From: a virus
Length of the DNA stretch: 64,000 nucleotides
Virus record (IMG/VR): IMGVR_UViG_3300037245_001077
Span: 96,001 to 160,000 of that record
Direction: 5' to 3' (one strand)
This document shows positions 14,723-41,635 of this stretch, piece after piece. Below the pieces are notes generated by a model. That model saw only the letters and a program-made list of their open reading frames with translations. It was not told the DNA's origin and made no database searches. The stretch's first letter is position 1; each line of letters begins with the position of its first letter. Made by a program: the position numbers and the translations under genes.

Positions 14723-15076
14723 ATGAGCTTTCGTGAAAAAGTAGACGAACATATCGAAGAGACATTGATGGAAGGCGTTCTTCCGGACGTAGACGACGTT
14801 CTGGAGATAGAAGTGCCTAACCAGAAATCGGGACCACAGGCGAGTGGTGATGGAGGCGGGCCAAAGAGTGCTCGGGCTAGAGAAGCCACCTTCACTGACC
14901 ATACTGCACCCCCGAATTTTGGTGGAGCTAGCCGGGATAAGAAGTTCCCGTGCCCGCCTTTCAGTAATGCCAACAGAAGCATTCCACCTGCGAAATTCGG
15001 TGGTGCTGCCAAGATCAAAGAAGAGGCTATTCAAGCCGTTCTTGCTGACTTGGAAGCTATGCAGGATGCCGAATAA
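14723..15076 (+). CDS. hypothetical head/core protein with acidic leader
   Basis: GGAGG RBS; MSFREKVDEHIEETLME leader; PPNFGGA/PPAKFGGA duplication. Confidence 0.55.
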   Translation: MSFREKVDEHIEETLMEGVLPDVDDVLEIEVPNQKSGPQASGDGGGPKSARAREATFTDHTAPPNFGGASRDKKFPCPPFSNANRSIPPAKFGGAAKIKEEAIQAVLADLEAMQDAE

Positions 15077-15087
15077 GGGGGTTGCCA

Positions 15088-16185
15088 ATGGCAACCCTTA
15101 AGGGTCGCGCCCAGCAAAGTTTATTTGCTGTTAAGAAAAGGGTGCGGTTGAGTCCTTTAACTGTAGGCGATGCTACGGCAATCGCTTTTACGGTTGTACG
15201 TTCTTCACCGCACGCTTTGCTGCGTGCAGCATATGCTTCTAAGGAAGCTAAAACCTTCCCTAAGAACCCCAATCAACGGGTGTTCTACAACGCGGTTAAT
15301 TCTGTTGTAGACCATCGTAAGGGGAGCCTATACGCTGCTTTCGTGACCTCTGTAGATGTGCGTGGGGTGTACAATGCAGACCGTTTTGCTACCTCATTGA
15401 AGCGTCTAGGTATTCTGGATGACCTTAAGGTAAAACTGACCGCAGATGGTTTTGGGGAAGCAGCTACGCTTATCTCAAACAAGGCTCCTTTCTTCTGGGC
15501 TGATCTAACAAGTCGGGAGATAGATACTGTTCGTAAAGAAGTGTCGGGTGTTGTACAACGAGTGGTCTCTAGGTTTAAAGAAGACATCGATGAAAAAGAT
15601 ATCGATGAGTTGATCGAGGCACAGGTATTTCGGTTAAAGCCCTCGACTCTCAGTCCTCGTGCTCAACTTCTTCATGGTGCAAGTCAGCTAGATGTTGGTG
15701 GGGGCTACCAAAGTATCTTCTTAAACCTTTTTCGTAAACTAGCACAAAATTCTAGGGTAACGTTACTAAACCAAAACAGTAGCCTAGAGGCCACTTTTGA
15801 GTCTTTCCATCAGCACTTGATGACTAATGCTTCGGCCTTACAACGGTTGTTACCTAAGGCAAAATTTGGGAAACAATCTTTAACGCCACAACAGCTTCAG
15901 CGATTGTTTCGTGATTCACAATTCACTCGCCAAATGAAGAAGGCGTTTGAGGCATCTTACGATAGCAAACAACACGCAATTCGAGTAGATGCTCTTTACC
16001 GGGGTATGCGCCGTTATCACGTTATGGTTGATCTACAACGAGCAGCAAAGTCGAAGCTAAGAAAAAATCTAAATGATGACGCAGTATCTGGTATACTAAG
16101 CAGCGTTGTCGGATTGTTTTTCGCCTTTGCAGGGGATACTAAAGGTCAATCATTCCCTGCTATGAAGTCAATAGCAAAGGGGTAA
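15088..16185 (+). CDS. basic hypothetical protein with C-terminal hydrophobic helix
   Basis: ATG 15088 after TAAGGGGGT; K/R-rich; AVSGILSSVVGLFFAFAG. Confidence 0.6.
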   Translation: MATLKGRAQQSLFAVKKRVRLSPLTVGDATAIAFTVVRSSPHALLRAAYASKEAKTFPKNPNQRVFYNAVNSVVDHRKGSLYAAFVTSVDVRGVYNADRFATSLKRLGILDDLKVKLTADGFGEAATLISNKAPFFWADLTSREIDTVRKEVSGVVQRVVSRFKEDIDEKDIDELIEAQVFRLKPSTLSPRAQLLHGASQLDVGGGYQSIFLNLFRKLAQNSRVTLLNQNSSLEATFESFHQHLMTNASALQRLLPKAKFGKQSLTPQQLQRLFRDSQFTRQMKKAFEASYDSKQHAIRVDALYRGMRRYHVMVDLQRAAKSKLRKNLNDDAVSGILSSVVGLFFAFAGDTKGQSFPAMKSIAKG

Positions 16186-16188
16186 TTC

Positions 16189-18006
16189 ATGCCTGAAAAT
16201 AAATTGATTCAGGGCTTTATGCGTATGACTGGGCTGGATAAGGTTATTCAGCGTGAAGTAGCTCTACGCGCACAGCTCGGGGGTATCCAAACTCAATTCG
16301 CTGGTGGTGATGACCTTGTTGGGGATTTGGCTACTATTGAAGAGGCCCTAAGTCAGTTCAATATGATTACCCGGATGCATCGTGAACGTAGGATGCGTTA
16401 TCGGGATTACGAAGCGATGGACAACTACGGAGACGTATCCGTAGCTTTAGATATCTATGCGGAAGAGGCTACTCAGACTGATCTCGTTAAGGACGAGAAC
16501 CTCTGGGTAACGGGTGACGATGCTCGTGCAGTAGAAGAGGTGCAAAAATTTCTTGTTAAGCACCGTATGCATACCCTGATCCAGGGGTTTGCTCGGAATC
16601 TTGCTAAGTATGGAGACATGTTCCTATCCTTGAGGTATACGTATGAGGGGATTGATCGTATTCTCTATCTTCCCCCGGACTATATCCACCGTATTGGCCC
16701 TAGTCTGGATCAGATTAAGCACTTCAAGCTGGAGCACCAGCTTGCCAAGGTTTCTCCCCGTCAAGATGGGCTGTTGCTCCCTTGGGAGTGTGTCCATTTA
16801 AGATTGCTTTCGTTCGGGTTCTCCACTCTTTATGGGCGTTCTATGATTGAGCCTGCACGTAAGCGTTGGTTGCACCTAAAACTTCTTGAAGATGCGGTTG
16901 CTATCTACCGTTTGAATCGGGCTGTTGAGCGGATCGTTTTCTACATCGATGTGGGTTCTGCTTCACCTTCTGAGTCTCTGCGGATTGTAAACACCTACAA
17001 ACGGAAGTTTGGAAATAAGCGTTCTTACATTGATCCGTCGCAGGGTACATTCGAGCAGCAGTATGACCCCCACAACATGTTGGAAAACATCTACTGGCCT
17101 GTGAATAGTGCTACTGAGCGATCTCGCATCGAGAAGCTGAACCCTCCGCCTGAGCAGGGACAACTTCAGGATCTTGATCACTTCAACGAGAAACTTTATG
17201 TGGCTCTAGGTATTCCGCGTGATTACCTAACTGGAGAAACTTCAGGAAGCTGGAATAGCCGGGAAGCTTTGGCTCTTCAAGATGTTCGATTCTCCCGTAA
17301 GCTACATATGCTTCAGATTGCTCTCCTAGAGGGCCTGGAGACCCTGTGCCGCTTCCACCTTGCTGTCCTGTGGGGCGATCCTGACAGAGCGGTAGCAGCT
17401 CGGTTTAATCTCCATCTAGCGGATATCTCTAAGGTAGCTCGCCAACAGTACGACACCGTTATGCTTAATCGTATCCAGCTCTTGACCATGATGAATGATC
17501 TTGGTACTCAAATGAGCTTTAACCGGGACGTGTGGGTACCGTTTGTTGTTGAGAACTTCTTCCCTGATATTCCGAAAGAAATGATTTCGCAGTTGATCAT
17601 CCCTGATGAAGAGTTGGCTGCGGCAGGAGATGAGTTAGACGCTATGAGAAATCCTCCTCCTGCTGCGGCAGCAGCTAAGAAACCTGCTGCGGCAGCAGCC
17701 AAGAAACCTGCTGCGGCAGCAGCCAAGAAACCTGCTGCTAAAAAGAAGAAGACTACTACTGAGGTTATCCGGCACACGATCATGAATGATTTGTTGAGCC
17801 GTAATCTCGTAGAAGATAAGGACAAAAAACTTTTAGAAGATCTCCTTGCTGTAAGTGGGACCATACAGGGTCCACAGGATTTCTCTTTTACTTTAGACCA
17901 CCCTGTAGAAATTCCACGGAAAGTTTTACAAGAGTTGGTGAAGCAACATTCGAGGAAGAAGAAGCCTAATAGTGTCCTCGTGGAGACAACCAATGGGGGT
18001 AAGTAG
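16189..18006 (+). CDS. portal protein (T4 gp20-like)
   Basis: YRDYEAMD..DVSVALDIYAEEA, LKLLEDAVAIYRLNRAVERIVFYIDVG and DLDHFNEKLYVALGIP are gp20 family motifs. Confidence 0.93.
   Translation: MPENKLIQGFMRMTGLDKVIQREVALRAQLGGIQTQFAGGDDLVGDLATIEEALSQFNMITRMHRERRMRYRDYEAMDNYGDVSVALDIYAEEATQTDLVKDENLWVTGDDARAVEEVQKFLVKHRMHTLIQGFARNLAKYGDMFLSLRYTYEGIDRILYLPPDYIHRIGPSLDQIKHFKLEHQLAKVSPRQDGLLLPWECVHLRLLSFGFSTLYGRSMIEPARKRWLHLKLLEDAVAIYRLNRAVERIVFYIDVGSASPSESLRIVNTYKRKFGNKRSYIDPSQGTFEQQYDPHNMLENIYWPVNSATERSRIEKLNPPPEQGQLQDLDHFNEKLYVALGIPRDYLTGETSGSWNSREALALQDVRFSRKLHMLQIALLEGLETLCRFHLAVLWGDPDRAVAARFNLHLADISKVARQQYDTVMLNRIQLLTMMNDLGTQMSFNRDVWVPFVVENFFPDIPKEMISQLIIPDEELAAAGDELDAMRNPPPAAAAAKKPAAAAAKKPAAAAAKKPAAKKKKTTTEVIRHTIMNDLLSRNLVEDKDKKLLEDLLAVSGTIQGPQDFSFTLDHPVEIPRKVLQELVKQHSRKKKPNSVLVETTNGGK
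17659..17739 (+). repeat. 24-bp tandem repeat (3 copies plus partial) encoding PAAAAAKK
   Basis: CCTGCTGCGGCAGCAGC(T/C)AAGAAA at 17659, 17683 and 17707, partial at 17731. Confidence 0.95.
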
Positions 18007-18338
18007 TGTCAGTAACCTATCAGAAGTTGGCCGGTCGAATTCAGAATGACCCAAAGGCCCTAGACTACACACAAACGCAGCTCATGATCCTGATGAACAG
18101 GGTTTTCTTTCACATTGGGGATGCGCTAGCTTCCGGTGAAGACGTATACCTTGAAGGCTTTGGTCGGTTTTACCCAGACTGTAAACCCCCAAGAAAGATC
18201 AAGTCGGGGTTAACGTCAGAAGAGCACTTGACAGAGTTCAAAGTATTTGTTAAGTTCAATGCGTTTAAACAGTTAAATATCCAAGTGCAAGAATTGATGA
18301 AACGCTTGGGTATAGAAGATTACCCAGAAGGAGAGTAA
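18006..18338 (+). CDS. HU/IHF-family DNA-binding protein
   Basis: ALASGEDVYLEGFGRF...PPRKIKSGLTSEE...VKFNAFKQL; GTG overlaps the portal stop (TAGTG). Confidence 0.85.
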   Translation: MSVTYQKLAGRIQNDPKALDYTQTQLMILMNRVFFHIGDALASGEDVYLEGFGRFYPDCKPPRKIKSGLTSEEHLTEFKVFVKFNAFKQLNIQVQELMKRLGIEDYPEGE

Positions 18339-18339
18339 A

Positions 18340-18516
18340 ATGCTTCCGCACCAAAAGAACCCACAAAAAGAAGAAGAGCCGTTTACCACTATGGATAGAG
18401 AGATGGCTAAGGTCTACAAAGAGACCCATCCTCATTACGATGAAGAAGATTACTACGGTACCAAAGCTGCACTTGAGCCGGATACTGAAGACGACGATGA
18501 CAAAGAAACTGCATGA
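18340..18516 (+). CDS. 58-aa acidic small protein (not in ORF track)
   Basis: AAGGAG RBS at 18328; MLPHQKNPQKEEEPF...EPDTEDDDDKETA*; fills the gap after HU. Confidence 0.65.
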   Translation: MLPHQKNPQKEEEPFTTMDREMAKVYKETHPHYDEEDYYGTKAALEPDTEDDDDKETA

Positions 18517-19264
18517 AGCCAAGAATATTGGCGGTCATGCTGCGACAAAGAGTCCATGGCGACATCATGCGATAGTTGCCACTGTAAGTGCGGCCCTTCG
18601 CCCAGGTAGATCTCAAGCCCTACACGATGTAGGGCAGCGGATGATGTTCCCTCGTTTTGCTAGGCTTGAGGCCGAATTCCGTAGACAATTGACGGATACC
18701 TTCAAGACTATCACCACAAACGGGGAGATGAGCAACCGGAAGATAAAAAAGATCTTCCGGATTTTCTATACCCAAGCTTTTCAAATGGGGCAAGCTGTTT
18801 CCAAAGGGGGAATTAGCCAGAAGCTTCCTCCACTTAACAAGGAGGATAAGCGGTGGTTAGAAACCTACCTGCGGAAAGAGTTTGATCTGTGGAAAAAGTT
18901 CATGGGCGATGTCCGGGCCAAAAAAGGAAAGATGGATTACGACCAGCGTAAGGAGTTGTATGTTCAAAGCCTGAGATCCATGTATCACAGTTCTCGGGTG
19001 ATTGCTACACCACCTATGACATTGTTCTATTGGATGACCACTCCAGCGGAGCACTGTCCACATTGTTTGTACTTGCAGGCGAAAAGCCCGTACATAAAGG
19101 AAAATCTCCCTACGGTTCCCGCAAGTGGAGATACGCAATGCCAGAGCAATTGTCGCTGTCATCTACGGGCAGTTCAAGTTACCATCGTGGAATATCTTAG
19201 GGTCAAACAAAAAGCCCCGACTCGTCAGGAGCTTCTTCGGGGAATGCGTGCCCTCACCAGATAA
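18497..19264 (+). CDS. head morphogenesis protein (Mu gpF / SPP1 gp7-like)
   Basis: YWMTTPAEHCPHC...PASGDTQCQSNCRCHL metal-binding motif; start reassigned to 18497 (MTKKLHE). Confidence 0.7.
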   Translation: MTKKLHEAKNIGGHAATKSPWRHHAIVATVSAALRPGRSQALHDVGQRMMFPRFARLEAEFRRQLTDTFKTITTNGEMSNRKIKKIFRIFYTQAFQMGQAVSKGGISQKLPPLNKEDKRWLETYLRKEFDLWKKFMGDVRAKKGKMDYDQRKELYVQSLRSMYHSSRVIATPPMTLFYWMTTPAEHCPHCLYLQAKSPYIKENLPTVPASGDTQCQSNCRCHLRAVQVTIVEYLRVKQKAPTRQELLRGMRALTR

Positions 19265-19297: not shown

Positions 19298-19771
19298 ATG
19301 AATTTGGTTGAAAAGCTAGACGCCTTCCTCACAGACATGTTGGGGAAAGGGTTTTCTGGGGGTGAGATTGCGGAACTACTCCTATTTGAAGATTTTCAAT
19401 TATCGGAGACCGTAAAGCGTGTTCGCCGTAAAGTAAGTGGGATCAACGTTACTATACGTAAAGTGGGGCGTCCTAACCCCCTTAGATCTCAAAAAGCTAA
19501 GAGAGCTGCACGTGCCCACAGAGCTACTCGGGCAGCCGCTTCGCGTAGGTTCCAACGGTCTCCTAAGGCCAAGCAGATGCGTCGAGTGATGTCTCGGGTA
19601 CGGAAGACTAAGCCTAAGCGTCTTAGCCGTCCTAAGCGTCCAGCAATGCGGCGTCCTAAGCGTCCAGCAACCCGGCGTCCTAAGCGTATAGCGACACGGC
19701 GTCCTAAGCGTTCAGCGACACGGCGTCCTAGAGTGAAGCGGTATGGTCCTCCTCGTCGGCGTAGGCGGTAA
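19298..19771 (+). CDS. protamine-like Arg/Lys-rich protein with acidic leader
   Basis: AGGAG RBS before ATG 19298; last 120 aa contain no D or E; RRPKR repeats. Confidence 0.8.
   Translation: MNLVEKLDAFLTDMLGKGFSGGEIAELLLFEDFQLSETVKRVRRKVSGINVTIRKVGRPNPLRSQKAKRAARAHRATRAAASRRFQRSPKAKQMRRVMSRVRKTKPKRLSRPKRPAMRRPKRPATRRPKRIATRRPKRSATRRPRVKRYGPPRRRRR
19628..19732 (+). repeat. 24-bp period repeat encoding RPKRxAxR
   Basis: CGTCCTA(A/G) at 19628, 19652, 19676, 19700 and 19724. Confidence 0.92.
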
Positions 19772-24859: not shown

Positions 24860-25228
24860 ATGCCGACCCTATCGTTTGATGGGTCGGTCTACTACTCTAG
24901 CGAGGTTGATCGTAGGGAGCTAGTAAGGCTTGCCCCGTCGTATGATGTTGATGTGCTCATGCAACGTGCTCGGTCTACTATCGTGGCCGCTGACGTTCAT
25001 GAAATCAACTTTACTGATTTGCCTAACAACAAGGCTACCAACATTCTTCTCTCTGTAGCAGAGGGGGATGTTGATGTGGCTATTACGGATGATAATTCCG
25101 TTGTCAGTACGTATAACCTAAAACCGTCAGGTATGATAATCTTGATGAATACGCTTGTTACGGACCTCACTATTACGGCTATTGCCGACTCCGTGTATGA
25201 CTTGATCGCTGCTGGGAAAGCATCATAA
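24860..25228 (+). CDS. small beta-rich structural protein candidate
   Basis: GGAGGG RBS; alternating beta pattern. Confidence 0.5.
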   Translation: MPTLSFDGSVYYSSEVDRRELVRLAPSYDVDVLMQRARSTIVAADVHEINFTDLPNNKATNILLSVAEGDVDVAITDDNSVVSTYNLKPSGMIILMNTLVTDLTITAIADSVYDLIAAGKAS

Positions 25229-27408
25229 TGCGATTTCCAAAGATACCTTCTGTACCTGAGCTAGGGCTATTTTATGGGGATCAGGGGGGACCGGGAACGA
25301 GTCTCCCTTCTTCTGATGCCCATAAGCTATGTCCTTTTTTAGCTGGGGAAGACAAGGCGTTTTGCTCGTTGGATGGGGCCTTGTGCCCTTTCATCGGGTT
25401 TAACTACCGTAGGTGTAAGAAGTACACCAACAACATGGCTAAGGGTACTTTGCAAGCCAATGACAGGGTTTCAGGTTCCAGTAAACCCCCCCGCATGGAG
25501 GCCCTCACAGAAGCGGCCAAAAAAAGGGGGTCCGCAAGTGAAGAAGACGTTACCAAAGCCTTAGATAGTCTTGAAGCTAAAGACATTAAGTCAGGGCTGT
25601 TTGCTGCTTTCGCTACTGACTTAGGAGTTCTAGCGGATGAAGGTGCGTCTCCAGAGGAATTAAAATCTCTCCAAGCAGAAATTGAACAGCAACTGTTGGC
25701 TTTTAAGCTTGTAACTCCCCCTATCATTGGGGAACCTGAGCCTGGAGAAACTGCGAAAGAGCGTAAAACAAGAGAAAAATTCGCAAGTAAGAGGATCAAC
25801 GCTCAAAAATTTCAACTTGAAAGAAAAAGAAAACTTGTAAACGCTTACATTGTTCGTACACTGGGTAGTATAGATGACAGTGGACGTAGGGCGAATGTTC
25901 AGATTGCCGCTGATGCTTTGTTCGATTTTGCCACTATGAGTGTGGAACAAGGTGTTCCAGATATAACACACTACCAAACACGACAAACCAATATCCGTCA
26001 TCATGATGCAGGAAACACGGAAGATCTGTTTTTCGGTAAGTACTCAGAGCGCATGAAGCACTCAGCTACATCTGCCAGTACAGAAGACCCAGACAACCGT
26101 CCCCATGAGCCACGTAAGGGACCGAATAGGGGTGCAAGTGCTCCTGATCCTAAAGGGCACCCTGGCCCAAGGCCCAGAAAGTCTTACGCTGGAGAGTCCC
26201 AAGCTAAAGCTAGAAATGCTTATGAGGCCCAAAAAAGAGCGGATAAGGCAGCAAGAAAACTTTTTAAAAAAGCCAAGAAGAAGGCTAAAAAGAAGGCTAG
26301 GGATAGACGTTTTAAAGAGCTAGAGAAAGAAGTAGCTAAAGGTGCATCTCCCGCGTATAAAGCATATAAGCGTCACCCTAGCGGACAAGCCCAAACTAGC
26401 ACGAAAGCACGTACCGCAGAGCAATTTGCTGGTTGGGCAAATGAGCTGTCTAAACATTACTCACAAGAGACTATAGACGCTGTTTTCCGTGGAGGAAATC
26501 GTGACGCAGATCAGAATATAGAGACAACAAAACAATCAGCCGAAAAACTCTATGCGAATAATGATGTTAAGAGTATTGCAGATTTACAAAAAGGACTTTT
26601 AGCAAAGTTGAGCAAGTTTGATGATATCGAGCACAAGAAAAAGGTTTTCGATTTAGAGTTTGAAGAAAATAAGAGAAAAGCACGGATACTTGACCCACGT
26701 CTAGACGAAAAGTTGAGAGCTTGGAAAACTGATCCAGAGCGATTGGGTAAAATTGCTACGATGCAAAATAAGGCCATTCGTAGACTCTATAGACTTGAAT
26801 ACCAAAAAGTAAAAATTGGTAACAGTGAGGTTATGCAAACTATTCGTAAAGCCACGGTACCTATGATGACCCGTGCAGACTATGAAGTTATTCGTATGTC
26901 TGAACAGCTTGGGTTGGCCGCAATCCAGAAGCAACATCAGTATGGACGCAAATATGGTAAATTTAACAGTTGGGTGTTGTTTGCAAAATCAATAGTTATA
27001 CCTGCTTTTGCCGCATCTCTGGGGTATACTCAGTATATCCCTATCCTTAGCCGTGCTTTCCCACAGCCCTGGTTAGACTCTTTCTACTTTGCTTACGTAG
27101 AAACACCTTTGCCCAAGTACCAAAGGTATGGGGGTAAAGATGATGGGCTGGTAATGTCTCGTGACGATAAGAGTATGATCAGCCAGCGTATGGTTTCTGG
27201 GCGTAGCAAGAAACTCATGAAGGGCTTTGATAAAGACTATGTTATGCCCCCGGATAGAGCGGTACTACACACCCAGTGGCGTCCTACCACTAAGAAGAGT
27301 TGGGGAAAAATTCGCCATAAAGAGTTGGCAAGACGGTTTCATGCTGCTAAAGTTAAGCCCCCTGCGGGTGCGGCTGATACTTGGCGTCGTGGGTTCTTAC
27401 GGAGATAA
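25228..27408 (+). CDS. basic hypothetical protein with N-terminal 4-Cys motif
   Basis: CPF..C..CPF..C motif; KKAKKKAKKK tract. Confidence 0.6.
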   Translation: MRFPKIPSVPELGLFYGDQGGPGTSLPSSDAHKLCPFLAGEDKAFCSLDGALCPFIGFNYRRCKKYTNNMAKGTLQANDRVSGSSKPPRMEALTEAAKKRGSASEEDVTKALDSLEAKDIKSGLFAAFATDLGVLADEGASPEELKSLQAEIEQQLLAFKLVTPPIIGEPEPGETAKERKTREKFASKRINAQKFQLERKRKLVNAYIVRTLGSIDDSGRRANVQIAADALFDFATMSVEQGVPDITHYQTRQTNIRHHDAGNTEDLFFGKYSERMKHSATSASTEDPDNRPHEPRKGPNRGASAPDPKGHPGPRPRKSYAGESQAKARNAYEAQKRADKAARKLFKKAKKKAKKKARDRRFKELEKEVAKGASPAYKAYKRHPSGQAQTSTKARTAEQFAGWANELSKHYSQETIDAVFRGGNRDADQNIETTKQSAEKLYANNDVKSIADLQKGLLAKLSKFDDIEHKKKVFDLEFEENKRKARILDPRLDEKLRAWKTDPERLGKIATMQNKAIRRLYRLEYQKVKIGNSEVMQTIRKATVPMMTRADYEVIRMSEQLGLAAIQKQHQYGRKYGKFNSWVLFAKSIVIPAFAASLGYTQYIPILSRAFPQPWLDSFYFAYVETPLPKYQRYGGKDDGLVMSRDDKSMISQRMVSGRSKKLMKGFDKDYVMPPDRAVLHTQWRPTTKKSWGKIRHKELARRFHAAKVKPPAGAADTWRRGFLRR

Positions 27409-27410: not shown

Positions 27411-28889
27411 ATGGCTCGTACTACACCACGTAAGGTTACTCCTAAACTCCAGTCTGTTGGAGGTGCGCGTCCTGTTAGATTTGAGGGCGGGACAGAGATG
27501 GAGTTGCATGGGTATTTGATCCCTGAGAAGCAAGAAGCTCGGGTAGAGATACCTATTTTCCAACATGCCTTCTACCCCACGCTCAAGCATACTGACCTTG
27601 ACGTTAAGCAGAACATCACCTACCGCTCTGTAACGCTTCCCTCCTTGTCCACCCTTAGGGCACATGGTATCGAGGCTGAGAGGGCCGTTTTTGTGGCTGA
27701 GGTGGTCGTTCATCCTCGGTACATCAAACACGCAAATTATTTCCGGGGGGATTTTCCTGCGAGCATGAAGACTCTTGCCCGTCGAGAAAATATCGTTTTT
27801 CTTTTCGCAGCTAACGATATGCCCTCGGCTAGGTTAAAGCGGAAGCAGGTTTTGAACTTCTGGCGTTTATCCTTTTCTCCTCTTTTGTTGAAGGGGAGAC
27901 AGTACACCTCTGGGCGTATGAGCTTCTTTATGGTTGCGCCTCCAGAGTCTGTGTCTAAGTTTAAGAGGTCGCTTAACCTTGAGGGTGTAACTGCGGAAAA
28001 CGTTAACAAGATTTTAGAATATTACCCTGCGGTTAGCCGTACACGGAGACCAAGAAAACGTGGACCTCGTGCGAAGTACACGGTTGAAGAGCGTAGGTTG
28101 GCTAACGAGTTGGTGAAAGAAACTTCCAGTAGGTTGTCAGACCAACTACTTCCTTTGGTGACTTCAAAATTTGACATCGCACCGAACTCGTCTACAGCTA
28201 AGCAGTTGGATGCTTATTTGAGTAATCCCGCTACTAGCCGAGAACTGATAAAGGCTACAGAAGGTAAGCGTAATCGTGCTTGGGCAGTAAAGAAATGGGT
28301 GAAGTCATCCATGCTTCCCCGTGTAATAGAGATTGCCAAGGACGAAGCGGCAATGGCAGGGGAGTCTATAGTCCGTTTTGCTGTTCTTGCAACTATCACA
28401 ACAGGAGTTAATATCGCCCTAGGACAGGCACAAGCCAGTAGAATAGGTAAAAAAATTAACGCCCTTCAGAAACTTGAGTATAAGCCTTCTCGGATGGCTT
28501 CGCATACACAGGTAGGCGCAGGGACTCTGGCTTTCAAGTTCTCACCTAATGCTAAAGACTTGTCTTCTATGCAACTGCAAGTAACCAAAAAAGCGATGGC
28601 AGAAATTATGGGCAATTTTGGGCAGTGGGATTACACTTCCGCACAAGGGTCTCTTTTTGACATCACGCTGAACTTGCACAATAAAACTAAACCAATAACA
28701 GTTAAATTGGACCATGCTGCGTTAAGAGTTCACCGGGGGCAGAACAAAGAGAACTTAGGGCCTTTTGCACATAAAAGTCAAGATAACTACCTCACCCAAC
28801 ATATTCTACCCGGCGTAGAACGAGAACTGAACATGTGGTTCCAGCACGGTAGAGAGTCTGAAGAAGATAGTCTACTAGGCAATTATTAA
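27411..28889 (+). CDS. basic hypothetical protein with hydrophobic helix
   Basis: ATG 27411 after GGAG; IVRFAVLATITTGVNIALG. Confidence 0.6.
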   Translation: MARTTPRKVTPKLQSVGGARPVRFEGGTEMELHGYLIPEKQEARVEIPIFQHAFYPTLKHTDLDVKQNITYRSVTLPSLSTLRAHGIEAERAVFVAEVVVHPRYIKHANYFRGDFPASMKTLARRENIVFLFAANDMPSARLKRKQVLNFWRLSFSPLLLKGRQYTSGRMSFFMVAPPESVSKFKRSLNLEGVTAENVNKILEYYPAVSRTRRPRKRGPRAKYTVEERRLANELVKETSSRLSDQLLPLVTSKFDIAPNSSTAKQLDAYLSNPATSRELIKATEGKRNRAWAVKKWVKSSMLPRVIEIAKDEAAMAGESIVRFAVLATITTGVNIALGQAQASRIGKKINALQKLEYKPSRMASHTQVGAGTLAFKFSPNAKDLSSMQLQVTKKAMAEIMGNFGQWDYTSAQGSLFDITLNLHNKTKPITVKLDHAALRVHRGQNKENLGPFAHKSQDNYLTQHILPGVERELNMWFQHGRESEEDSLLGNY

Positions 28890-29617
28890 TGCTGTACTTA
28901 GAACAAGAAGCTGCCCTTCGTCAGGTTACAGAGGGAGTAGATGTTCTTTCTCACTTCCTAATGGAGCTGTATGATTTAGACGAGGATGATGCTCTAGACA
29001 CAGTACGAGAACTACCTGATCTTATCAATAAAATCCAAGACAATAAGCTCCGAGAATTGTTTGAGGTAGCGGCTAAGCGTGCTCGTACTAAGGTAATCAA
29101 ATTCAATCAACCAAACCCCGATGAGTTCTACCCTGGCCATCCAAAGTTCATGCCGAATATTACAACCAAGAGTACGTTTAACGAGCATATGGCTCAAGCG
29201 TTAGAGCCTTATGTCACATCTATTATGCGTAAAGTAGCTAAGGATCGTGGCCTTAAAGCTCCTGAGGAGCGTGTTGTTAAAGCAGTTATAGCCCAAACAG
29301 ATTGGGCAAGAGCCGCATACGAAGCTAAACGTATGCCCCCTAAGCCTCCTCCAAGCCAATTACGCCGGTTCTTTAGAAAGTATCTTGGTCCATTAGAACG
29401 CAAGTTATCTGGGGCTACAGGTATGTTGTTTGGAATAGCCATGTCTGCCCTTATGATGCAGATGATGTGGCAAACCTTTAAGCATTCCGCTGAAGCAGCA
29501 GGAGGAGGAGTGAAAAGTTTCATACCCTTCTCTCATGCTTCTCAGCACAGAGTGCAGAACAAGTATCAACGCAAACTGGGTATTCCTAAACGGTTCCGAA
29601 CCTTTAAGACCTTCTAA
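28889..29617 (+). CDS. protein with acidic leader, basic body and TM-like helix
   Basis: Acidic N-terminus ending LRELFE; GATGMLFGIAMSALMMQMMW. Confidence 0.6.
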   Translation: MLYLEQEAALRQVTEGVDVLSHFLMELYDLDEDDALDTVRELPDLINKIQDNKLRELFEVAAKRARTKVIKFNQPNPDEFYPGHPKFMPNITTKSTFNEHMAQALEPYVTSIMRKVAKDRGLKAPEERVVKAVIAQTDWARAAYEAKRMPPKPPPSQLRRFFRKYLGPLERKLSGATGMLFGIAMSALMMQMMWQTFKHSAEAAGGGVKSFIPFSHASQHRVQNKYQRKLGIPKRFRTFKTF

Positions 29618-30401: not shown

Positions 30402-30767
30402 ATGGAAGCACGGCGGCTGATTGACGCAGACATCATCTTAGGGGAGTCCCTTACAAGATTCCATCTTGCGATGGACAACTCGATGTTTCCTGATAGCAGC
30501 ACCGAACTCCATGTAGCTCACCATCCGAATGGTGACCTTAGAGAACCGGCACAATGGTACAATGTTTACGAACATCCTACTGAGCACCAGCTCAAGCTAG
30601 TTCGTGAAGCACTTAATATCGATGAGGACGACTGGAGGATTGTAGAGCACATGCTCGGATCTTTTCGCTGGGTTATTTACCAGCATGTTGACCCCTCAAA
30701 ACGCGCTGAAATTCGTGTCGATGTTGCCGGTATGAAGGCCGGTGAATGGACAACAACCTACTTCTAG
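30402..30767 (+). CDS. hypothetical protein
   Basis: ORF preceding the protease. Confidence 0.55.
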   Translation: MEARRLIDADIILGESLTRFHLAMDNSMFPDSSTELHVAHHPNGDLREPAQWYNVYEHPTEHQLKLVREALNIDEDDWRIVEHMLGSFRWVIYQHVDPSKRAEIRVDVAGMKAGEWTTTYF

Positions 30768-30777
30768 GAGATCACTG

Positions 30778-32313
30778 ATGACTGACCTGATCGAAGTTAT
30801 GCCCTTTGAATATCAGATTGTAGAATCTGAGAATGGCGCGTTCCGCGTTGAAGGGGTTTTCCAACGGTCAGATGTCGAGAATGCTAACAAGCGTGTTTAC
30901 CCCCGTCGTATCTGGGAAAAAGAACTGGGTGAGAAGAGGGTCATGGAAGCCCTTGAAAGCCGTTCTATGTACGGTGAACTGGATCACCCGTCCGATGGGA
31001 AAACGATGTTGAAACGTGTGTCTCATGTAGTTACTAATCTTTCTCTTACTGAGGATGGAACAGTAACTGGCGGGGCAGACATTTTGCCTACACCAAATGG
31101 CCAGATCCTACGCACTCTTTTTGAGTCGGGTACCCAAGTCGGTATTAGTTCTCGGGGGTCAGGTTCCGTACAAGGCGGTGTAGTACAGGAGGATTTCAAG
31201 CTCGGTACTTTTGATTTCGTAGCGCGACCCTCCACCCCAGGTGCGCTCCCCCGCCATGCGGGGGAAATTAGCGGTAAAAAGTCCCGCACAGAAGGTGACG
31301 ATACTATCGAGAATGTTGTCGTAACAGATGCAGGGGAAATGGACTCCGATCTTTTCGACAAGCTTTGTCAAGAATTAGAAACCCTTGATGCTGGCGGCAT
31401 TGTTGATGGTAATCTAACTGAAAGTGAACTTTCTACCATGGATTTCAATGACATCGGTCACGACGTTACAGTGTTGTATAATGCTGTAATGGGAGAACAG
31501 GAGTTCTCTCCTGAATTTGTGGACGCAGTCAGTGAAGATATCCTAAATCTCGGTGGAACACTAACTCAATTAGCGGCTGACCACCCCGAACATGGAATAG
31601 TTATTTCAGATCTACTAGAAAAAGTCGAGAAAAGCCGTGGGGCTGTGATTGCACAAGTCCCACAAGAAATTGTTAAGGAGGAACCCATGGACAGGCTTCA
31701 ATTCATTAAGGACCGTCTCCAAGAGCGCTCTGACAACCAAGTTTTAAGCGCTGAGGAGGAGATCATGCAAGAAGCCGATGAGCTGCGTCAGGAGCTAGAA
31801 GAGCTTACTGATGACGAGTTGATTGACGTAGCCTTGAAAACTGGTGTTCTTGAGCCAGATGGCGTTGACGAAGACGATGACGATGACGAGCCGGAAGCGG
31901 AAGTCACCGTTCAGGATCTTTTGGATTACATCGAAGAACTTGAGAACGATCACGAAGAGGCGACAAACTTGGTTGTGGAGTTGGCGGAGGCCCTTGAAGA
32001 GACAGAAGATGTTGATGACATCACACTAAAGTACGAGGCTTCGTTGAACATCATCCAAGAGACCGTTGGTCGTTATCAACTTCTACAAGAGGCAGTCGGT
32101 GGCGAAGAGAAGGCCGAAGCGATTATGGAAGCCCATATTCAGGCCCTCGAAGCTGCATCAGAAGTCACCGAGAGTGGTGACAAAAAGAGAACCCTTACAG
32201 AAGACGACGATGTCGCCGCTGTTGAGGCACTTTTGAACCAGGACGATCCAGAGGGTGACGCTGAGATGCAGCGTTACGTAGAACTCGCAGAGAGTGCCCT
32301 CGGGTTGAACTAG
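30778..32313 (+). CDS. prohead protease (T4 gp21-like) fused to acidic scaffold domain
   Basis: VEGVFQRSDVENANKRVYP, YGELDHP, VSH, ILPTPNG, VGISSRGSGS and FDFVARPS motifs; start ATG 30778 after AGGAG. Confidence 0.92.
   Translation: MTDLIEVMPFEYQIVESENGAFRVEGVFQRSDVENANKRVYPRRIWEKELGEKRVMEALESRSMYGELDHPSDGKTMLKRVSHVVTNLSLTEDGTVTGGADILPTPNGQILRTLFESGTQVGISSRGSGSVQGGVVQEDFKLGTFDFVARPSTPGALPRHAGEISGKKSRTEGDDTIENVVVTDAGEMDSDLFDKLCQELETLDAGGIVDGNLTESELSTMDFNDIGHDVTVLYNAVMGEQEFSPEFVDAVSEDILNLGGTLTQLAADHPEHGIVISDLLEKVEKSRGAVIAQVPQEIVKEEPMDRLQFIKDRLQERSDNQVLSAEEEIMQEADELRQELEELTDDELIDVALKTGVLEPDGVDEDDDDDEPEAEVTVQDLLDYIEELENDHEEATNLVVELAEALEETEDVDDITLKYEASLNIIQETVGRYQLLQEAVGGEEKAEAIMEAHIQALEAASEVTESGDKKRTLTEDDDVAAVEALLNQDDPEGDAEMQRYVELAESALGLN
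31687..32313 (+). CDS. nested in-frame scaffold protein (internal start)
   Basis: TAAGGAGG (31674-81) plus 5 nt plus in-frame ATG; very acidic coiled coil, 208 aa. Confidence 0.65.
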   Translation: MDRLQFIKDRLQERSDNQVLSAEEEIMQEADELRQELEELTDDELIDVALKTGVLEPDGVDEDDDDDEPEAEVTVQDLLDYIEELENDHEEATNLVVELAEALEETEDVDDITLKYEASLNIIQETVGRYQLLQEAVGGEEKAEAIMEAHIQALEAASEVTESGDKKRTLTEDDDVAAVEALLNQDDPEGDAEMQRYVELAESALGLN

Positions 32314-32346: not shown

Positions 32347-33723
32347 ATGCAAACCCAAGAACTTCACGCACTTGGTGATCTGGGCAAGCAACTTGCAGAA
32401 GGCCACTGGCGTCCACTCGTCGAGAGTATCGAAGATAAAAGCACCAGAGAGCTAACCGCAATTCTGCTAGAAAATGAGCGCAGGTATATTGCAAACATGG
32501 AAGAGGATGTTAGGATCCAGAGTATTGGATCGTTCGAGAAGTTCGTCTTCCCCATCGTTCGTGCTGTGTTCCCGAATCTTATTGCCAAGGATATCGTTAG
32601 TGTCCAGCCTATGACTGGACCGACATCATTGGTATTCTATCTTGATGCCGTGTATGGCACTACCAAAGGTAGCGTCACTGCCGGTGACACAATGTTCAGC
32701 GCCCGTAAGGGTCACCTTGCGGACGACCAGTACTCGTCTGAGTTCGTTGACGGCGAGAAGTATGCCGATTCGGGTGGTACTGCTGTATCATTCACACTTG
32801 GCTTCCATAGTTGCCGTCCGGGTACTTTCTCAGCGGTTTATGAGGATGCACAGGGCGGAAGCGATCTCGTTACCGTTAAAGATAATGGTGTTGGTGGTTT
32901 GACAGCTACTGGTGGTGATGGCATTACTGGTACTGTGACTATCAACTACGCTACTGGCGCAGTTGTATGGACCGCTTCTAGCACTATTGCTTCGACAATT
33001 GTTGGTAGCTACTACTACAATTCTGAGGGATCTGACCAGATTCCTATCGTTGACATCAACCTGTCCAGTGTGCCGGTTCGTGCGATTCCGCACAAATTGC
33101 GTGCTCGTTGGTCAGTTGAGGCCGCAACTAATCTGAAGGCCATCCATGGCATGGACGCTGAGTCTGAGCTGGTTGCCCTTCTCTCTGAGAAGATCCGGTG
33201 GGACGTTGATCGTAGAATCATCTCCGACCTCTTCACTATCGCTTCGGCTGGTTCCGTTACTTGGAACAAGCCCGCTCCTGCCGCGATTTCGTACAACGAT
33301 CACAAGCAGACCTTCATTGACGCACTCATTGAAGCCAGCAACCTGATCTTCCGTGCGACTCGTCGTGGTACTGGTAACTTCGTTGTGTGTGGCACCAACG
33401 TGTCGAACGTCATTGAGTCTCTCTATGGCTTCCGTCCGCAGGCTGTTGCAGGCAACGGTGTTGTGTTCGTTGGTACGCTCCAGGGTCGCTGGTCGATCTA
33501 CAAGGATCCGTACATGGACGCCGACAAGTTCCTCGTTGGTTGGAAGGGTTCTTCTTTCCTTGAGGCCGGTTACGTGTATGCTCCGTATGTGCCGCTGTAC
33601 ACTACACCAACTTACGTACTCGACGACATGTTGAACCGTAAGGGGATGATGAGTCAGTACGGTGTAAAGGCGATCAATGGCGACTTCTATGCGCTTGGTG
33701 AAGTCACTTACAATGTGGTGTAA
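32347..33723 (+). CDS. major capsid protein (T4 gp23-like)
   Basis: AILLENE, PIVRAVFPNLIAKDIVSVQPMTGPT, KLRARWSVEAA.NLKAIHGMDAESEL and AGYVYAPYVPL motifs. Confidence 0.96.
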   Translation: MQTQELHALGDLGKQLAEGHWRPLVESIEDKSTRELTAILLENERRYIANMEEDVRIQSIGSFEKFVFPIVRAVFPNLIAKDIVSVQPMTGPTSLVFYLDAVYGTTKGSVTAGDTMFSARKGHLADDQYSSEFVDGEKYADSGGTAVSFTLGFHSCRPGTFSAVYEDAQGGSDLVTVKDNGVGGLTATGGDGITGTVTINYATGAVVWTASSTIASTIVGSYYYNSEGSDQIPIVDINLSSVPVRAIPHKLRARWSVEAATNLKAIHGMDAESELVALLSEKIRWDVDRRIISDLFTIASAGSVTWNKPAPAAISYNDHKQTFIDALIEASNLIFRATRRGTGNFVVCGTNVSNVIESLYGFRPQAVAGNGVVFVGTLQGRWSIYKDPYMDADKFLVGWKGSSFLEAGYVYAPYVPLYTTPTYVLDDMLNRKGMMSQYGVKAINGDFYALGEVTYNVV

Positions 33724-38119: not shown

Positions 38120-39964
38120 ATGATGGGTATTTATGTATCTCCTGGTGTGTACACTCGGGAAATCGATCTTTCGTTGTACGTACCATCACTGTCTACTACA
38201 ATCGTAGGCATGGTTGGTGTGACAACCAAGGGACCGACTCAAGAACGTACTTACATTTCTAATCAACAGCAGTTTATCGAGGTTTTTGGCCAGCCTGATC
38301 CTGCCGTGGGTGTTGAAGCTTTCTCAGCTTTGCAGTACCTACGACGTGGTCGCCAGCTCTGGTTCGTTCGTGTGGTAGGTGACGCTGCTGCAAAAGCCAC
38401 AGTAACCATGACCTATGGAGATCCTACGCTGGCTGAAACGATCAACACTGACCCCGATGGTATCTTGGTGGCTTTTGCTCACGATGATACAGGTGGTTCG
38501 GTATTCACCAACCTGCCCATTACTCCTGGGTCTATTGACATCACAGCAGTTATTGGTACATCTGATTATCAGATCACTGATGATGGTCTTGGTGCCCTAT
38601 CGGGAACTGGCCCAACTGGTGGAATCACAGGTGCTATCGACTATGTAAATGGTGAGTGGAATATTGCTTTCAACGCATCTGACCCGCCAGATGACCTCTC
38701 AGATCTCATAGCTGATTACAGCGCAGCGGTAGAGGCGTTTGAGGCTGAAGCATTGAGTGAAGGTGAGTGGGGTAACAGCGTTTCGCTTACCGTTTCTGCG
38801 GGTACTGAAGCCAACACCGTACTCCTCGAAGTTTGGTTTGAAGGCATAAAGGTTGAGCGTTTCAACAACGTAGACCTTGATGACACCACTGGAAACGCAC
38901 AGTTTATCGAAACTAAGATCAATGGCGTGTCTGACTTCATTACAGTTACCTTGGACGTTGGTCTTGTTGGTGCCTCTAGTGAGTTGCCCTCGATTACAAC
39001 TACAGCACAGAGCCTAGTTGATGGAGACACTGACGCTTCTGCTATACTAGCCGATAATATCATTGGTGAGGCGTGGAACGTTGGCTTGTCACAATCGACT
39101 GGATTGCAGCTCTTCGCTTCTCCGAGTGCGGTAGACATTAACCTGTTGGCTGCTCCTGGTTGGGCAGACGCGGCAGTGGTCAATGAGTTGCTCCAAATCG
39201 CAGAAGTCCGTGCGGATTGTATGTCGATCATTGACCCGCCAGCGGGTCTGCGTCCTTCCGAGGTTGTAGACTGGCACAATGGTGCAGGTACTTACGCTGG
39301 GCAGCACGCAGCTTTCAATAGCTCCTATGCTGCTTTGTACTACCCGTGGGTCAAGGTGTACGACGCTTATAACGGCACATACGTTTGGACGCCTCCGTCC
39401 GGTCACGTGCTGGCTGTGTACGCCTACAGCGACTACACTACTGAGACTTGGTTCGCTCCAGCCGGTTTGAACCGTGGTCGTGTGATTTCGGGTGTTGACA
39501 TCGCGTATGACCCGACTCCGGGTGAGTTTGATCTGATGTACGGTGACGGTAACGCGGTCAACGGTATTGCACGCTTCACAAAGGACGGCTTGGTTGTTTG
39601 GGGCCAACGTACCCTACAACGTAAGCCTAGCGCACTCGACCGTGTGAACGTTCGTCGTCTTCTCTTGTATCTCCACAAGGTTATTTCGACCTCAGTTCGT
39701 TACCTTGTGTTCGAGCCGAACGATGAAAAGACTTGGAAGCTGTTCGGCCACTTGGTTACCCCGTATCTTAACGATGTCCGTCAGCGTCGTGGGCTGTATG
39801 ACTTCCGTGTAAAGTGCGATGAAAGCACTAATACCCCTGCGGTTATTGACCGGAATGAAATGCACGCACAGATCTTCCTGAAGCCCGTAAAGGCTGCTGA
39901 GTTCATCCAGGTGGATCTCGTGATTACTGCAACCGGTGCGAACTTTGACGAAGTACTTTACTAG
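38120..39964 (+). CDS. contractile tail sheath protein
   Basis: YVSPGVYTREIDLS, YAALYYPW, PPSG, WFAPAGLNRG, VWGQRTL, RVNVRRL, VFEPND and KPVKAAEFI motifs. Confidence 0.96.
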   Translation: MMGIYVSPGVYTREIDLSLYVPSLSTTIVGMVGVTTKGPTQERTYISNQQQFIEVFGQPDPAVGVEAFSALQYLRRGRQLWFVRVVGDAAAKATVTMTYGDPTLAETINTDPDGILVAFAHDDTGGSVFTNLPITPGSIDITAVIGTSDYQITDDGLGALSGTGPTGGITGAIDYVNGEWNIAFNASDPPDDLSDLIADYSAAVEAFEAEALSEGEWGNSVSLTVSAGTEANTVLLEVWFEGIKVERFNNVDLDDTTGNAQFIETKINGVSDFITVTLDVGLVGASSELPSITTTAQSLVDGDTDASAILADNIIGEAWNVGLSQSTGLQLFASPSAVDINLLAAPGWADAAVVNELLQIAEVRADCMSIIDPPAGLRPSEVVDWHNGAGTYAGQHAAFNSSYAALYYPWVKVYDAYNGTYVWTPPSGHVLAVYAYSDYTTETWFAPAGLNRGRVISGVDIAYDPTPGEFDLMYGDGNAVNGIARFTKDGLVVWGQRTLQRKPSALDRVNVRRLLLYLHKVISTSVRYLVFEPNDEKTWKLFGHLVTPYLNDVRQRRGLYDFRVKCDESTNTPAVIDRNEMHAQIFLKPVKAAEFIQVDLVITATGANFDEVLY

Positions 39965-39974
39965 GAGTTAAAAA

Positions 39975-40433
39975 ATGAGAGATAAGATTGTTAAAGTTAG
40001 TGATAAAGTGAAGGGCTTGCGTTCCCGGTCTAAGCGAAATATTGCGGGTTTTAAACAAGCCGCGAAAGAGTACGGTAAGGCTAAATACCCTGTTAGTCGT
40101 AAAGAGGGATTCAAAGCTGGAGGCCGTTTCTATAAAGAGTTGGCCAAAGGTTCTGCTAGTGGGTTAAAGGCCGGGGTTAAAGGTGCTCATGCAACGGGTA
40201 AAGCGATGAAAGCTAAGTACCGTAAAGGTTTTAAAAAGGCCGGTGGGGAGTATCACACTTGGGCGAAAAGTAAAGGTGGTCGCAGTCTTCCTCGTCGATT
40301 GGTTCTTTCAAAAAGTGAAAGAGCAAATATGAAGGGTAAGAAAAAAGCTATGTTCAAGGCTGCTTTTGCCCAACACGAAGTCACCCGTGAAGAAGTTATC
40401 GCTGCTCTCGTAGAAGTTTTTATGAGCGAGTAA
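39975..40433 (+). CDS. Lys-rich basic protein with acidic C-terminal tag
   Basis: K/G/A-rich; ends HEVTREEVIAALVEVFMSE. Confidence 0.7.
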   Translation: MRDKIVKVSDKVKGLRSRSKRNIAGFKQAAKEYGKAKYPVSRKEGFKAGGRFYKELAKGSASGLKAGVKGAHATGKAMKAKYRKGFKKAGGEYHTWAKSKGGRSLPRRLVLSKSERANMKGKKKAMFKAAFAQHEVTREEVIAALVEVFMSE

Positions 40434-41635
40434 TGACTCGGGCAGAACTTCTCCACGAAGGTGGTCTTTATAAGGCTGCTTTTCGCTACGGAAGACGTAA
40501 GGTCCGTGGTGCGGGTGGTGGTGCTTGGCACTATGCTCAGACTACTAAGCGTGATGCTAAGCGTATGGTTAAAGCCCATAGGGTATTGAAAAGAGGGGCA
40601 CTTAAAACTGCCGCTCTCCGGCAAATGTTGGGTACGGATAAGAAAAGAAAATTACGTGGTATTACACACGCAATTACAAGCAAAGCTCAAATGCGTACTC
40701 TAAAGGCTGCGTCTGATCGTCACACGAAAACTATGGGGCGAGCAGCAACTATACGTGATACGGCTGTAGGTCGCAATGCTGTGCGGGTAGGGGCTGTAGC
40801 TTTAGGTGCTAGTGCTCTTTATTATGCTGGGGTTAAAACCTATCGTATGAAGAAGCGGCAAGCTCAAGAGCGCCCTCAATTTAGTAGTTATGATGTGTAC
40901 CCTCAACTAAGCCATTCAGCGGCACGGCAACAAGTACACAACCGTCCAGTTTACTATGATGATCGTGATGTTGGTGGTGGCCCGCCTAGGGTGGAGGATA
41001 TGAACATGATTAGAGAAGAACTAATTGAAATGATGAGTATAGGTGCTTTGGCCAAACGCTCAAAGAGTAATGTGGTTGGCAAGTACAGAGAGATTGGTGG
41101 CATTAAAGGTATGCCTCGTACCTCTAAAAGAAATATGGCTCGGACTTTTACGTCGCTTGACACAAAACGTAAGAAACGAAACAAAAAAAGAATAGCTAGT
41201 TTTGATAGGGCTGCTAAAGCGGCTACTAAAGGCAAGTATCGCAAGACCTATTCTTCTGCCATAGACCGTGCTGATCGACGGGGTAAAAAGATACACCTTG
41301 GAATAGGAGCAGGACTAGCTGCAACTGGGTCTCCAGTTGCTGGAGCTGCGATTGGTGCTTCTGGATTAATACCTTACCATCGTAAAAGTATAAAAGCGAT
41401 GGAACGCCATGTGCAGGGCGTCAAAGCTGTTAAAAAGCAGATACATAAAGAGAAGAAGCGAGCTGATTCGGCTAAATACTTTAGTAAAGAGTATGTGCCT
41501 GCCTGGAACAAGGGACACGAAAAGTCGCCCGTGGTTAAGGGCTACCGAAAAATGGCCAAAAAAATCAAGCGAATGGGCGAAGAAGAAAGAAATCAACTTG
41601 TGGATATGGTATTCGAGGCTCTTCTTCGAGGGTAA
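40433..41635 (+). CDS. basic protein, apparent fusion of two paralogous units
   Basis: MTRAELLHE leader; internal GGAGG plus ATG 41006 giving MIREELIE; two Gly/Ala-rich hydrophobic segments. Confidence 0.7.
   Translation: MTRAELLHEGGLYKAAFRYGRRKVRGAGGGAWHYAQTTKRDAKRMVKAHRVLKRGALKTAALRQMLGTDKKRKLRGITHAITSKAQMRTLKAASDRHTKTMGRAATIRDTAVGRNAVRVGAVALGASALYYAGVKTYRMKKRQAQERPQFSSYDVYPQLSHSAARQQVHNRPVYYDDRDVGGGPPRVEDMNMIREELIEMMSIGALAKRSKSNVVGKYREIGGIKGMPRTSKRNMARTFTSLDTKRKKRNKKRIASFDRAAKAATKGKYRKTYSSAIDRADRRGKKIHLGIGAGLAATGSPVAGAAIGASGLIPYHRKSIKAMERHVQGVKAVKKQIHKEKKRADSAKYFSKEYVPAWNKGHEKSPVVKGYRKMAKKIKRMGEEERNQLVDMVFEALLRG

Follow-up and report, generated by a model that had tools for sequence, protein, structure and literature searches.

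The closest precedent comes from bacteriophage T4, with its capsid targeting sequences and the processing by the gp21 protease of IPI-III, Alt, gp67, gp68, gp22, gp23 and gp24 (reviewed in PMC9026906 and PMC5694885). For the packaging of IPIII its first ten residues are sufficient, residues 4 and 7 acting in targeting and residues 8 and 10, which belong to an I-x-E motif, directing the cut; the T4 internal proteins have a leader in common, and Alt loses only six N-terminal residues, at ITE-6 (PMC9026906, PMC5694885). In phiKZ, 201phi2-1 and SPN3US, head and ejection proteins are processed by gp175/gp245 (PMC5694885, PMC10052503, PMC7411985). Here, I describe a block of head genes (the head block) of an uncultured large phage in which the motif L-x-E is selectively conserved, and which points, with a probability of roughly 0.6, to T4-style loading and propeptide trimming of head-internal proteins in a distant uncultured clade. 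The stretch of DNA analysed (the window) is 64,000 nucleotides (nt) long and corresponds to bases 96001-160000 of the 176.5-kb IMG/VR virus contig IMGVR_UViG_3300037245_001077.

In family scans, a T4-type portal gene is followed by about 15 open reading frames (ORFs) without family, by a Peptidase_S77 ORF (30742-32313) and by a Gp23-type capsid gene (Table 1); almost every gene of the window lies on the plus strand. A first-pass annotation had proposed that acidic leaders ending in L-x-E load polycations into the prohead and, upon cleavage, unmask them, and all nine of the strings it quoted are found at their places. Relatives were collected by portal- and capsid-anchored searches of viral contigs, yielding 6-13 syntenic uncultured phages whose orthologues are 26-88% identical. 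Since the quoted sites had been picked from one genome, their conservation in these relatives amounts to a blind test: five of the six picked sites (leaders or junctions) recur in 80% or more of the relatives, vs one of the 14 other [IL]xE in the same six proteins (Fisher p=0.002). Conservation across these sequences lifts the motif above chance.

A second test was restricted to variable context. To this end, 41 orthologous families from the 7-43 kb part of the window were aligned and 140 tripeptide classes compared at positions whose 20 flanking columns are poorly conserved, 80% of relatives being the minimum for a motif to count as kept. Within the head block this holds for [IL]xE in 7/22 cases, for the mirror motif E-x-[IL] in 1/21, and for the other non-low-complexity classes, pooled, in 64/2415 (2.7%; p=1.6e-6); elsewhere [IL]xE is kept in 0/4 cases in neck and tail proteins and in 1/11 in upstream genes. 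When 400 exact residue pairs are ranked, L-x-E comes first (8/17), followed by G-x-G (3/8), and no such conservation was found for A-x-E (0/22), S-x-E (0/16), I-x-E (0/8), V-x-E (0/12) or G-x-E (0/11); processing at S/A-x-E, as known from phiKZ and SPN3US, has thus left no mark in variable context. The predicted sites have Leu at P3 in 75 of 81 instances, a free P2, and mostly Ala, Asn or Gly at P1'.

The same code was run on T4 and seven relatives, the scaffold proteins of which are 48-77% identical. In the known gp21 substrates (gp67, gp68, gp21, gp22, gp23 and gp24) [IL]xE is kept in 6/21 cases vs 39/576 for other classes (p=0.003), and at a stricter threshold in 2/11 vs 6/245 (p=0.04); in gp16-gp20, which are not substrates, the count is 0/4. 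The control flags LTE-65 of gp23 and LRE-10 of gp24, both of which I take to be cut sites. It also flags LIE-9 of gp21, a named candidate site (PMC9026906). The window therefore bears the signature left by true gp21 substrates, at a strength at least equal to that in T4.

The sites can be followed through the families, which are named below by the first position of the gene. In the 14723 family, L-x-E precedes Gly in 7/7 relatives. The ATG at 18497 is internal to the longest ORF, which begins at 18440, and is taken as the correct start because three relatives start exactly there; LHE, LTE or LLE is followed by AK in 7/7 relatives, and a wider search gave 37 full-length cluster representatives, reaching down to 45% identity, of which 33 have L-x-E, with Leu and Glu invariant among the 33, P2 variable, and leaders of 6-13 amino acids (aa). 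The acid-to-base junction of the 19298 family has L-x-E in six of seven relatives and A-I-E in one, despite variable insertions immediately upstream; its L-S-E counts as a conserved site in variable context, and the layout of acidic and basic charge is kept across relatives. Another site in variable context is that of the 25228 family, where L-x-E precedes Ala in 5/5 relatives by junction alignment, the motif being kept in 6/7 in the conservation scan. In the 28889 family a hydrophobic-x-E is found in 7/8 relatives, with a register drift of one residue. Besides those of the 15088 and 27411 proteins, two sites are absent from the first-pass list: L-V-E599 of the portal (nt 17977-17985), conserved in variable sequence six residues ahead of the C-terminal end, and L-Q-E close behind the start of the probable nested scaffold, again in variable context. 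The HU-family protein, also a member of the head block, has no conserved L-x-E.

Table 1. Features of the window discussed in the text; a slash marks a predicted cut, and the last column refers to the strings quoted by the first-pass annotation.
Feature	Position	Strand	Size and net charge	Leader, site or family match	Quoted string
Small acidic protein	14723..15076	+		17-residue predicted leader, 14723-14773, ending L-M-E/G (nt 14765-14773)	EETLME, residues 12-17
Basic protein	15088..16185	+	365 aa, +24	Candidate site L-I-E177/A (nt 15610-15618), conserved in variable sequence	Not listed
T4-type portal	16189..18006	+		PF07230 (Portal_T4)	
HU-family DNA-binding protein	18006..18338	+		PF00216, E=1.1e-9; phrog_379; directly 3' of portal gene	
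Basic protein	18497..19264	+	255 aa, +26	7-residue predicted leader MTKKLHE/AK (nt 18497-18517)	MTKKLHE
Protamine-like protein	19298..19771	+	leader -6; following 120 residues +53	37-residue acidic predicted leader, nt 19298-19408, ending L-S-E/T	FQLSE, residues 33-37 (from ATG 19298)
Basic protein	25228..27408	+	726 aa	95-residue Cys-rich N-terminal segment ending L-T-E/AAKK (nt 25504-25512)	EALTE, residues 91-95
Basic protein	27411..28889	+	+30	Candidate site I-L-E203/Y (nt 28011-28019), conserved in variable sequence	Not listed
28889 protein	28889..29617	+	leader -11; basic body +23	59-residue acidic helical predicted leader ending L-F-E/V (nt 29057-29065)	LRELFE, residues 54-59
Prohead protease fused to acidic scaffold-like tail	30778..32313	+	511 aa, -85		
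Nested scaffold product, probable	31687..32313	+	208 aa, -55		
Gp23-type major capsid protein	32347..33723	+		PF07068, E=7.9e-69	
Polycation	39975..40433	+	152 aa, +29	C-terminal helix ...REEVIAALVEVFMSE resembling C-termini of the 40433 family	AALVE, near C-terminus
Polycation between sheath and tube genes	40433..41635	+	400 aa, +64	9-residue predicted leader MTRAELLHE/GG (nt 40433-40459)	MTRAELLHE; MVFE, near C-terminus
MIREELIE segment	41006..41029	+		Internal, in frame within 40433-41635	MIREELIE

The enzyme that would cut at these sites is encoded in the same module, in agreement with the release by proteolysis that the first-pass annotation had proposed. The longest form of its ORF (523 aa) begins at 30742, and the start used by the relatives corresponds to the Met at 30778. 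The N-terminal part matches PF03420 Peptidase_S77, the family of T4 gp21, with E=1.8e-17 and 63.9 bits vs a curated cut-off of 27, and it also matches phrog_207, head maturation protease. Aligned to the crystal structure of T4 gp21 (5JBL), the blocks GELDHPS (His block) and GISSRG (Ser block) and the Asp in F-D-F lie opposite those of gp21, and these catalytic blocks are invariant in ten relatives; the Ala residues of the 5JBL chain at these blocks are taken, from the alignment, to be the mutated catalytic His and Ser. In T4 IPIII, a Glu-to-Asp exchange at P1 reportedly abolishes the cut. Catalysis by T4 gp21 involves a His/Ser/Asp triad (PMC5694885).

Towards its C-terminus the protease ORF continues into an acidic, scaffold-like tail. 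At the start of this tail, a strong Shine-Dalgarno sequence, TAAGGAGG, and an in-frame ATG at 31687 lie within 31674-31689, and the Met at 31687 is kept in 10/10 relatives, which suggests a separately made nested scaffold comparable to lambda C/Nu3. Six conserved L/I-x-E sites are found in the tail (nt 31717-31725, 31993-32001, 32053-32061, 32083-32091, 32122-32130 and 32284-32292). In the capsid protein, LVE26 (nt 32416-32424) and LLE42 (nt 32464-32472) are each conserved 10/10 in the N-terminal propeptide region; in the alignment, capsid residue 66 stands opposite residue 29 of mature T4 gp23*, which by spacing puts Glu42 at most about five residues from the T4 maturation point. The conservation of L-L-E42 is not independently informative, for the entire N-terminus of the capsid protein is conserved.

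One relative (L019) has an insertion of about 390 residues in its protease gene (L019:970-3666), right after the catalytic-His block GELDHP; its first residue is Cys and it ends in ...TGN before Ser, thereby resembling an intein in an active-site motif. Pfam finds the S77 domain of this protein in two stretches and recognises no intein domain.

Several points weigh against the reading of these genes as a T4-style loading and trimming system, to begin with those that concern the numbers. When [IL]xE is counted in a single genome and compared with within-protein shuffles, the observed/expected (O/E) ratio is 1.34 for the head block, 0.97 for tail proteins and 1.15 for the remainder of the genome; the raw density is near background, and the single-genome observation is barely above chance. 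Families with the motif in the first 22 residues are as many as those with the mirror motif (4 vs 4), a count distorted by erroneous start calls; with 18497 added manually it becomes 5/21 head or cassette families vs 0/20 others (p=0.027, post hoc). Such measures, taken alone, come close to overturning the first-pass proposal. Moreover, the p-values given throughout are approximate, because the alignments hold 4-11 related sequences and the motif classes overlap. One may suspect on these grounds that chance explains it all: Leu, Ile and Glu are common residues, L-x-E near termini is to be expected, and the quoted list would then be a selection effect, the more so as two of its nine items (41006 and the C-terminal tags, see below) fail as cut sites. 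The results of the blind and variable-context tests, the first rank of L-x-E among 400 residue pairs and the fact that the relatives are not near-identical lineages make this account very improbable.

The other points on the same side of the balance concern particular families. Four divergent members of the 18497 family are without the Glu, and in this family the motif abuts a strongly conserved block (LxE-AKNIGGH), so that it could be part of the mature fold. The site of the 28889 family fails the strict 80% rule (5/7). In the AlphaFold2 (AF2) model of the latter protein, the acidic leader is predicted as a separate helical unit (residues 1-68; predicted local distance difference test score, pLDDT, 82-87), which a linker of low confidence (69-93) connects to the body, and L-F-E59 is placed in the last confidently predicted helix of the leader, not in the linker. 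As for the 40433 protein, its location in the head is a guess because its gene sits among tail genes; and, one pair of leaders apart (see below), the leaders have no common sequence, unlike those of T4 IPI-III.

Such positions, in a predicted helix or beside a conserved block, would also be expected if L-x-E were a helix or coiled-coil feature of acidic amphipathic segments, serving folding or contacts in proteins that stay full length. The C-terminal tags, being a conserved helix in which the Glu is at times missing, fit this alternative, and so does the overall conserved fraction of [IL]xE, which at 0.30 is no higher than that of [IL]xR (0.33) or [FYW]xE (0.39); the latter measure is, though, non-discriminating, because conserved protein cores dominate it. 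A structural role alone nonetheless seems improbable, for the mirror motif, of equal composition and helical periodicity, is rarely kept, L-x-D, L-x-Q and L-x-K are without such a signal, and the signal is limited to the head block and absent from neck and tail proteins. Along the same line, the shifted register in 28889 and the insertions ahead of the 19298 junction indicate that the motif is kept independently of its exact position, and true T4 substrates bear the same signature. On balance, that most of the conserved sites are cut is quite probable from the pattern of their conservation.

Whether the leaders also act as addresses is a more tentative matter, to which I would give slightly less than even odds. 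The T4 capsid targeting sequence is reportedly the subject of a study by Mullaney and Black in 1996. In the window, short leaders that end in the protease motif and are conserved in relatives are found in 18497 (7 aa), 40433 (9 aa) and 14723 (17 aa). When the N-termini of 41 families are compared as profiles (hhalign), the first 19 residues of 14723 and those of 19298 each have the other as best match, with a score of 27-28 and 95% probability; none of the 39 other N-termini scores above 13.5 (at most 24%), the runner-up for 14723 reaching 12. Judged from these profiles, the two leaders are homologous, albeit borne by two otherwise unrelated proteins. The leader occurs on no other ORF in the genome. 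The 14723 body is acidic and that of 19298 protamine-like; the shared leader is therefore not a by-product of body composition, which supports a possible address role for this pair only. The leaders of 18497 and 40433 match weakly (score 10), with little in common beyond L-x-E, and 25228 and 28889 have N-termini of their own.

With leaders so diverse, it is conceivable that a prohead protease cuts at L-x-E with no address being involved, the basic bodies binding the acidic core by charge and the propeptides serving for folding, for solubility or for keeping DNA-binding proteins off DNA before assembly. In favour of this, the short leaders vary in sequence and length with nothing common beyond L-x-E, only one protein pair has a leader in common, and electrostatic capture is plausible for a core of net charge -55 to -85 and a cargo of +12 to +65. 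Cleavage devoid of targeting is nevertheless an unlikely reading: the leader common to an acidic and a basic body is not explicable by body charge, and in T4 the first 10 residues alone suffice for targeting, all internal proteins using such propeptides (PMC9026906, PMC5694885).

Charge bears on the idea of unmasking as well. Among the products of the head block, seven small proteins (net -8 to -23) and the scaffold are acidic, whereas ten proteins are basic (net +7 to +65). Acidic leaders, as put forward by the first-pass annotation, are found in 14723 (-4), 19298 (-6) and 28889 (-11) and not in 18497 (+1), 40433 (-1) or 25228 (+3); the switch to basic sequence after the site holds for five of these six, 14723 being acidic after it too. 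Across relatives the 19298 leader ranges from -6 to -10 vs a body of +35 to +53, and that of 28889 from -5 to -11 vs +11 to +25. The leaders offset from about 20% (19298) to 50% (28889) of the cargo charge and almost none of it in the other proteins; it follows that unmasking is a minor effect at best, and it is doubtful that charge masking matters. Attraction of basic cargo to an acidic core is a better fit to the data than intramolecular masking. What stands of address-and-release is the gp21-type protease gene, the selectively conserved L-x-E, the T4-like signature and one shared leader; the short leaders of 18497 and 40433 are not acidic.

Under the favoured reading, that of T4-style loading and trimming, the prohead would be built around an acidic core consisting of the scaffold-like tail of the protease ORF and probably of several small acidic proteins. 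This core would be joined by the basic proteins whose genes lie between portal and protease, and probably by the one encoded between sheath and tube; the gp21-type serine protease would then cut after the Glu of Leu-x-Glu, removing short leaders (7-13 residues) from the 18497 and 40433 families, longer propeptides (17-95 residues) from 14723, 19298, 28889 and 25228, and the N-terminal segment of the capsid protein after Glu42, and breaking up the scaffold at some six conserved sites. Once freed, the basic proteins may remain with the DNA. From these gene sequences I infer cleavage at the sites, a role of the leaders in directing proteins to the core, and a cargo inside the head; the sole hint for the location of the cargo is gene position, between portal and protease.

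The principle is the known T4 mechanism. The two systems have in common the S77 protease, portal and capsid families, an L/I-x-E rule with the cut after Glu (predicted here), basic proteins that start with short leaders (6-20 residues), unrelated cargo proteins with a leader in common (here for one pair), an acidic core with many cut sites (again predicted here) and a capsid protein with an N-terminal propeptide (a putative one here). What is specific here is the narrower preference for Leu, almost exclusive at P3; a protease and scaffold in one ORF with a probable nested start, unlike the separate genes 21 and 22 of T4; cargo genes that together occupy about 12 kb between the portal and protease genes; propeptides that in some cases are long (37-95 residues) and acidic; and a far more basic cargo, of up to 35% Lys and Arg. 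The predicted leaders show no evident sequence likeness to those of T4.

Compared with phiKZ, 201phi2-1 and SPN3US, there is a likeness in the long N-terminal propeptides (more than 100 residues in those phages) on many head-internal proteins, in redundant cut sites after Glu and C-terminal processing of the protease (both predicted here) and in big blocks of orphan head proteins; unlike the enzymes of these phages, which belong to MEROPS S80 and cut at S/A-x-E or A-x-E, the protease here matches Pfam S77 directly. The cultured phages nearest by capsid protein, at about 35% identity, are Bacillus phage SP-15 and Listeria phage LIS04 (Thornevirus), which likewise have a T4-type portal and capsid and a long T4-type protease (559 aa) with an L-x-E-rich C-terminal part (18 motifs). 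LIS04 differs in having neither a cargo block between portal and protease nor a basic gene between sheath and tube, and at the position aligned to the capsid propeptide L-L-E it lacks the motif; this phage is too distant for a comparison of site conservation.

Megablast of 20 kb vs cultured phages returned no nucleotide match, tblastn with the 19298 protein gave 0 matches, and tblastn with the 18497 protein gave a single partial match, to a hypothetical protein. In PHROGs and Pfam scans all cargo proteins are orphans except the HU-like 18006, whose gene is kept in all six relatives examined. Two side observations concern members of the block. The part of the 25228 protein ahead of the predicted L-T-E cut site (nt 25228-25512) has a conserved Cys pattern, CPF...C...C-PF-x-GFNYR-x-C-KKY, like that of a small metal-binding domain; the 15088 protein has a sub-threshold Pfam match to the dermonecrotic toxin N-terminal domain (PF20178, 23.3 bits vs a cut-off of 27), which is probably not meaningful.

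Downstream of the capsid gene come neck genes, the tail sheath gene (38120-39964), two very basic ORFs and a tube-sized ORF (41683-42222), the last being 83-90% identical among relatives. A basic gene, one per genome, separates sheath and tube in every relative. In the phages compared (the window, L013, L014 and L016-L020) the protein exists in a long form of 378-420 aa and a short form of 192-215 aa, the latter in four relatives. Both a hydrophobic segment and, at the C-terminus, an amphipathic helix are conserved in the 40433 protein, and [LI]-x-E lies inside the first 8-19 residues in 7/8 orthologues. As a side observation, the C-terminal amphipathic helix of the short form is the one found mid-protein in the long form of the window, and in all forms the hydrophobic segment is followed by Y-x-x-Y-D-V-Y-P. 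A hypothetical ORF between sheath and tube genes is also found in Klebsiella phage vB_KpnM_Lion_ER11 (L025:4265-4885), a T4 relative; this junction thus tolerates insertions in true T4-like phages too.

Two further proposals for this region did not stand. MIREELIE at 41006 had been listed as another leader; in spite of the GGAGG upstream, an internal start is rejected, for the counterpart of the segment in the short orthologues is their C-terminal helix, and of three long orthologues only one keeps the L-I-E. The C-terminal tags had been likened to cut sites, and C-terminal processing is exemplified by T4 Alt. The C-termini of the sheath-tube basic proteins form a conserved amphipathic helix with [LIV]-x-E usually, not always, 1-12 residues from the end, and a cut there would take off only four or five residues; cut site and helix being indistinguishable in these alignments, the tags are not clearly cut sites. 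For the 39975 protein no orthologue was found among the relatives examined, and its paralogy with the two halves of 40433, as an expanding paralogue family, was rejected as not significant (E=0.07).

A 692-aa protein encoded just upstream of the head block (12596-14674) is 73-87% identical among relatives and occupies the position expected of a large terminase, yet neither PHROGs (E<=0.001) nor Pfam (E<=0.01) gave a match for it.

The most speculative extension of these data concerns the 19298 family. In adenovirus, the precursor pVII is an arginine-rich DNA-condensing protein whose N-terminal propeptide is removed by a capsid-resident viral protease in maturation. By analogy, the 19298 protein could be a protamine-like, DNA-condensing precursor whose acidic, address-bearing pro-domain is removed in the prohead and which, together with the HU homologue and about ten other polycations, would yield a protein-condensed packaged chromosome, i.e. 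a tailed-phage counterpart of the adenovirus pVII core. The logic would be the same, though the protease and proteins are unrelated, adenovirus is a eukaryotic virus and DNA condensation by 19298 is hypothetical; I regard this scenario as rather unlikely.

To sum up, if the sites are cut, the load-and-trim system of T4 would reach a lineage whose capsid protein is no more than about 35% identical to that of the nearest cultured phages, with a clean Leu-x-Glu rule and a defined set of about ten candidate internal proteins. Its very basic cargo, the protamine-like protein included, would then bear on how DNA is neutralised in large phages and on co-injected proteins. Calibrated on T4, the variable-context test may offer a cheap readout of the specificity and substrates of prohead proteases from metagenomes alone.

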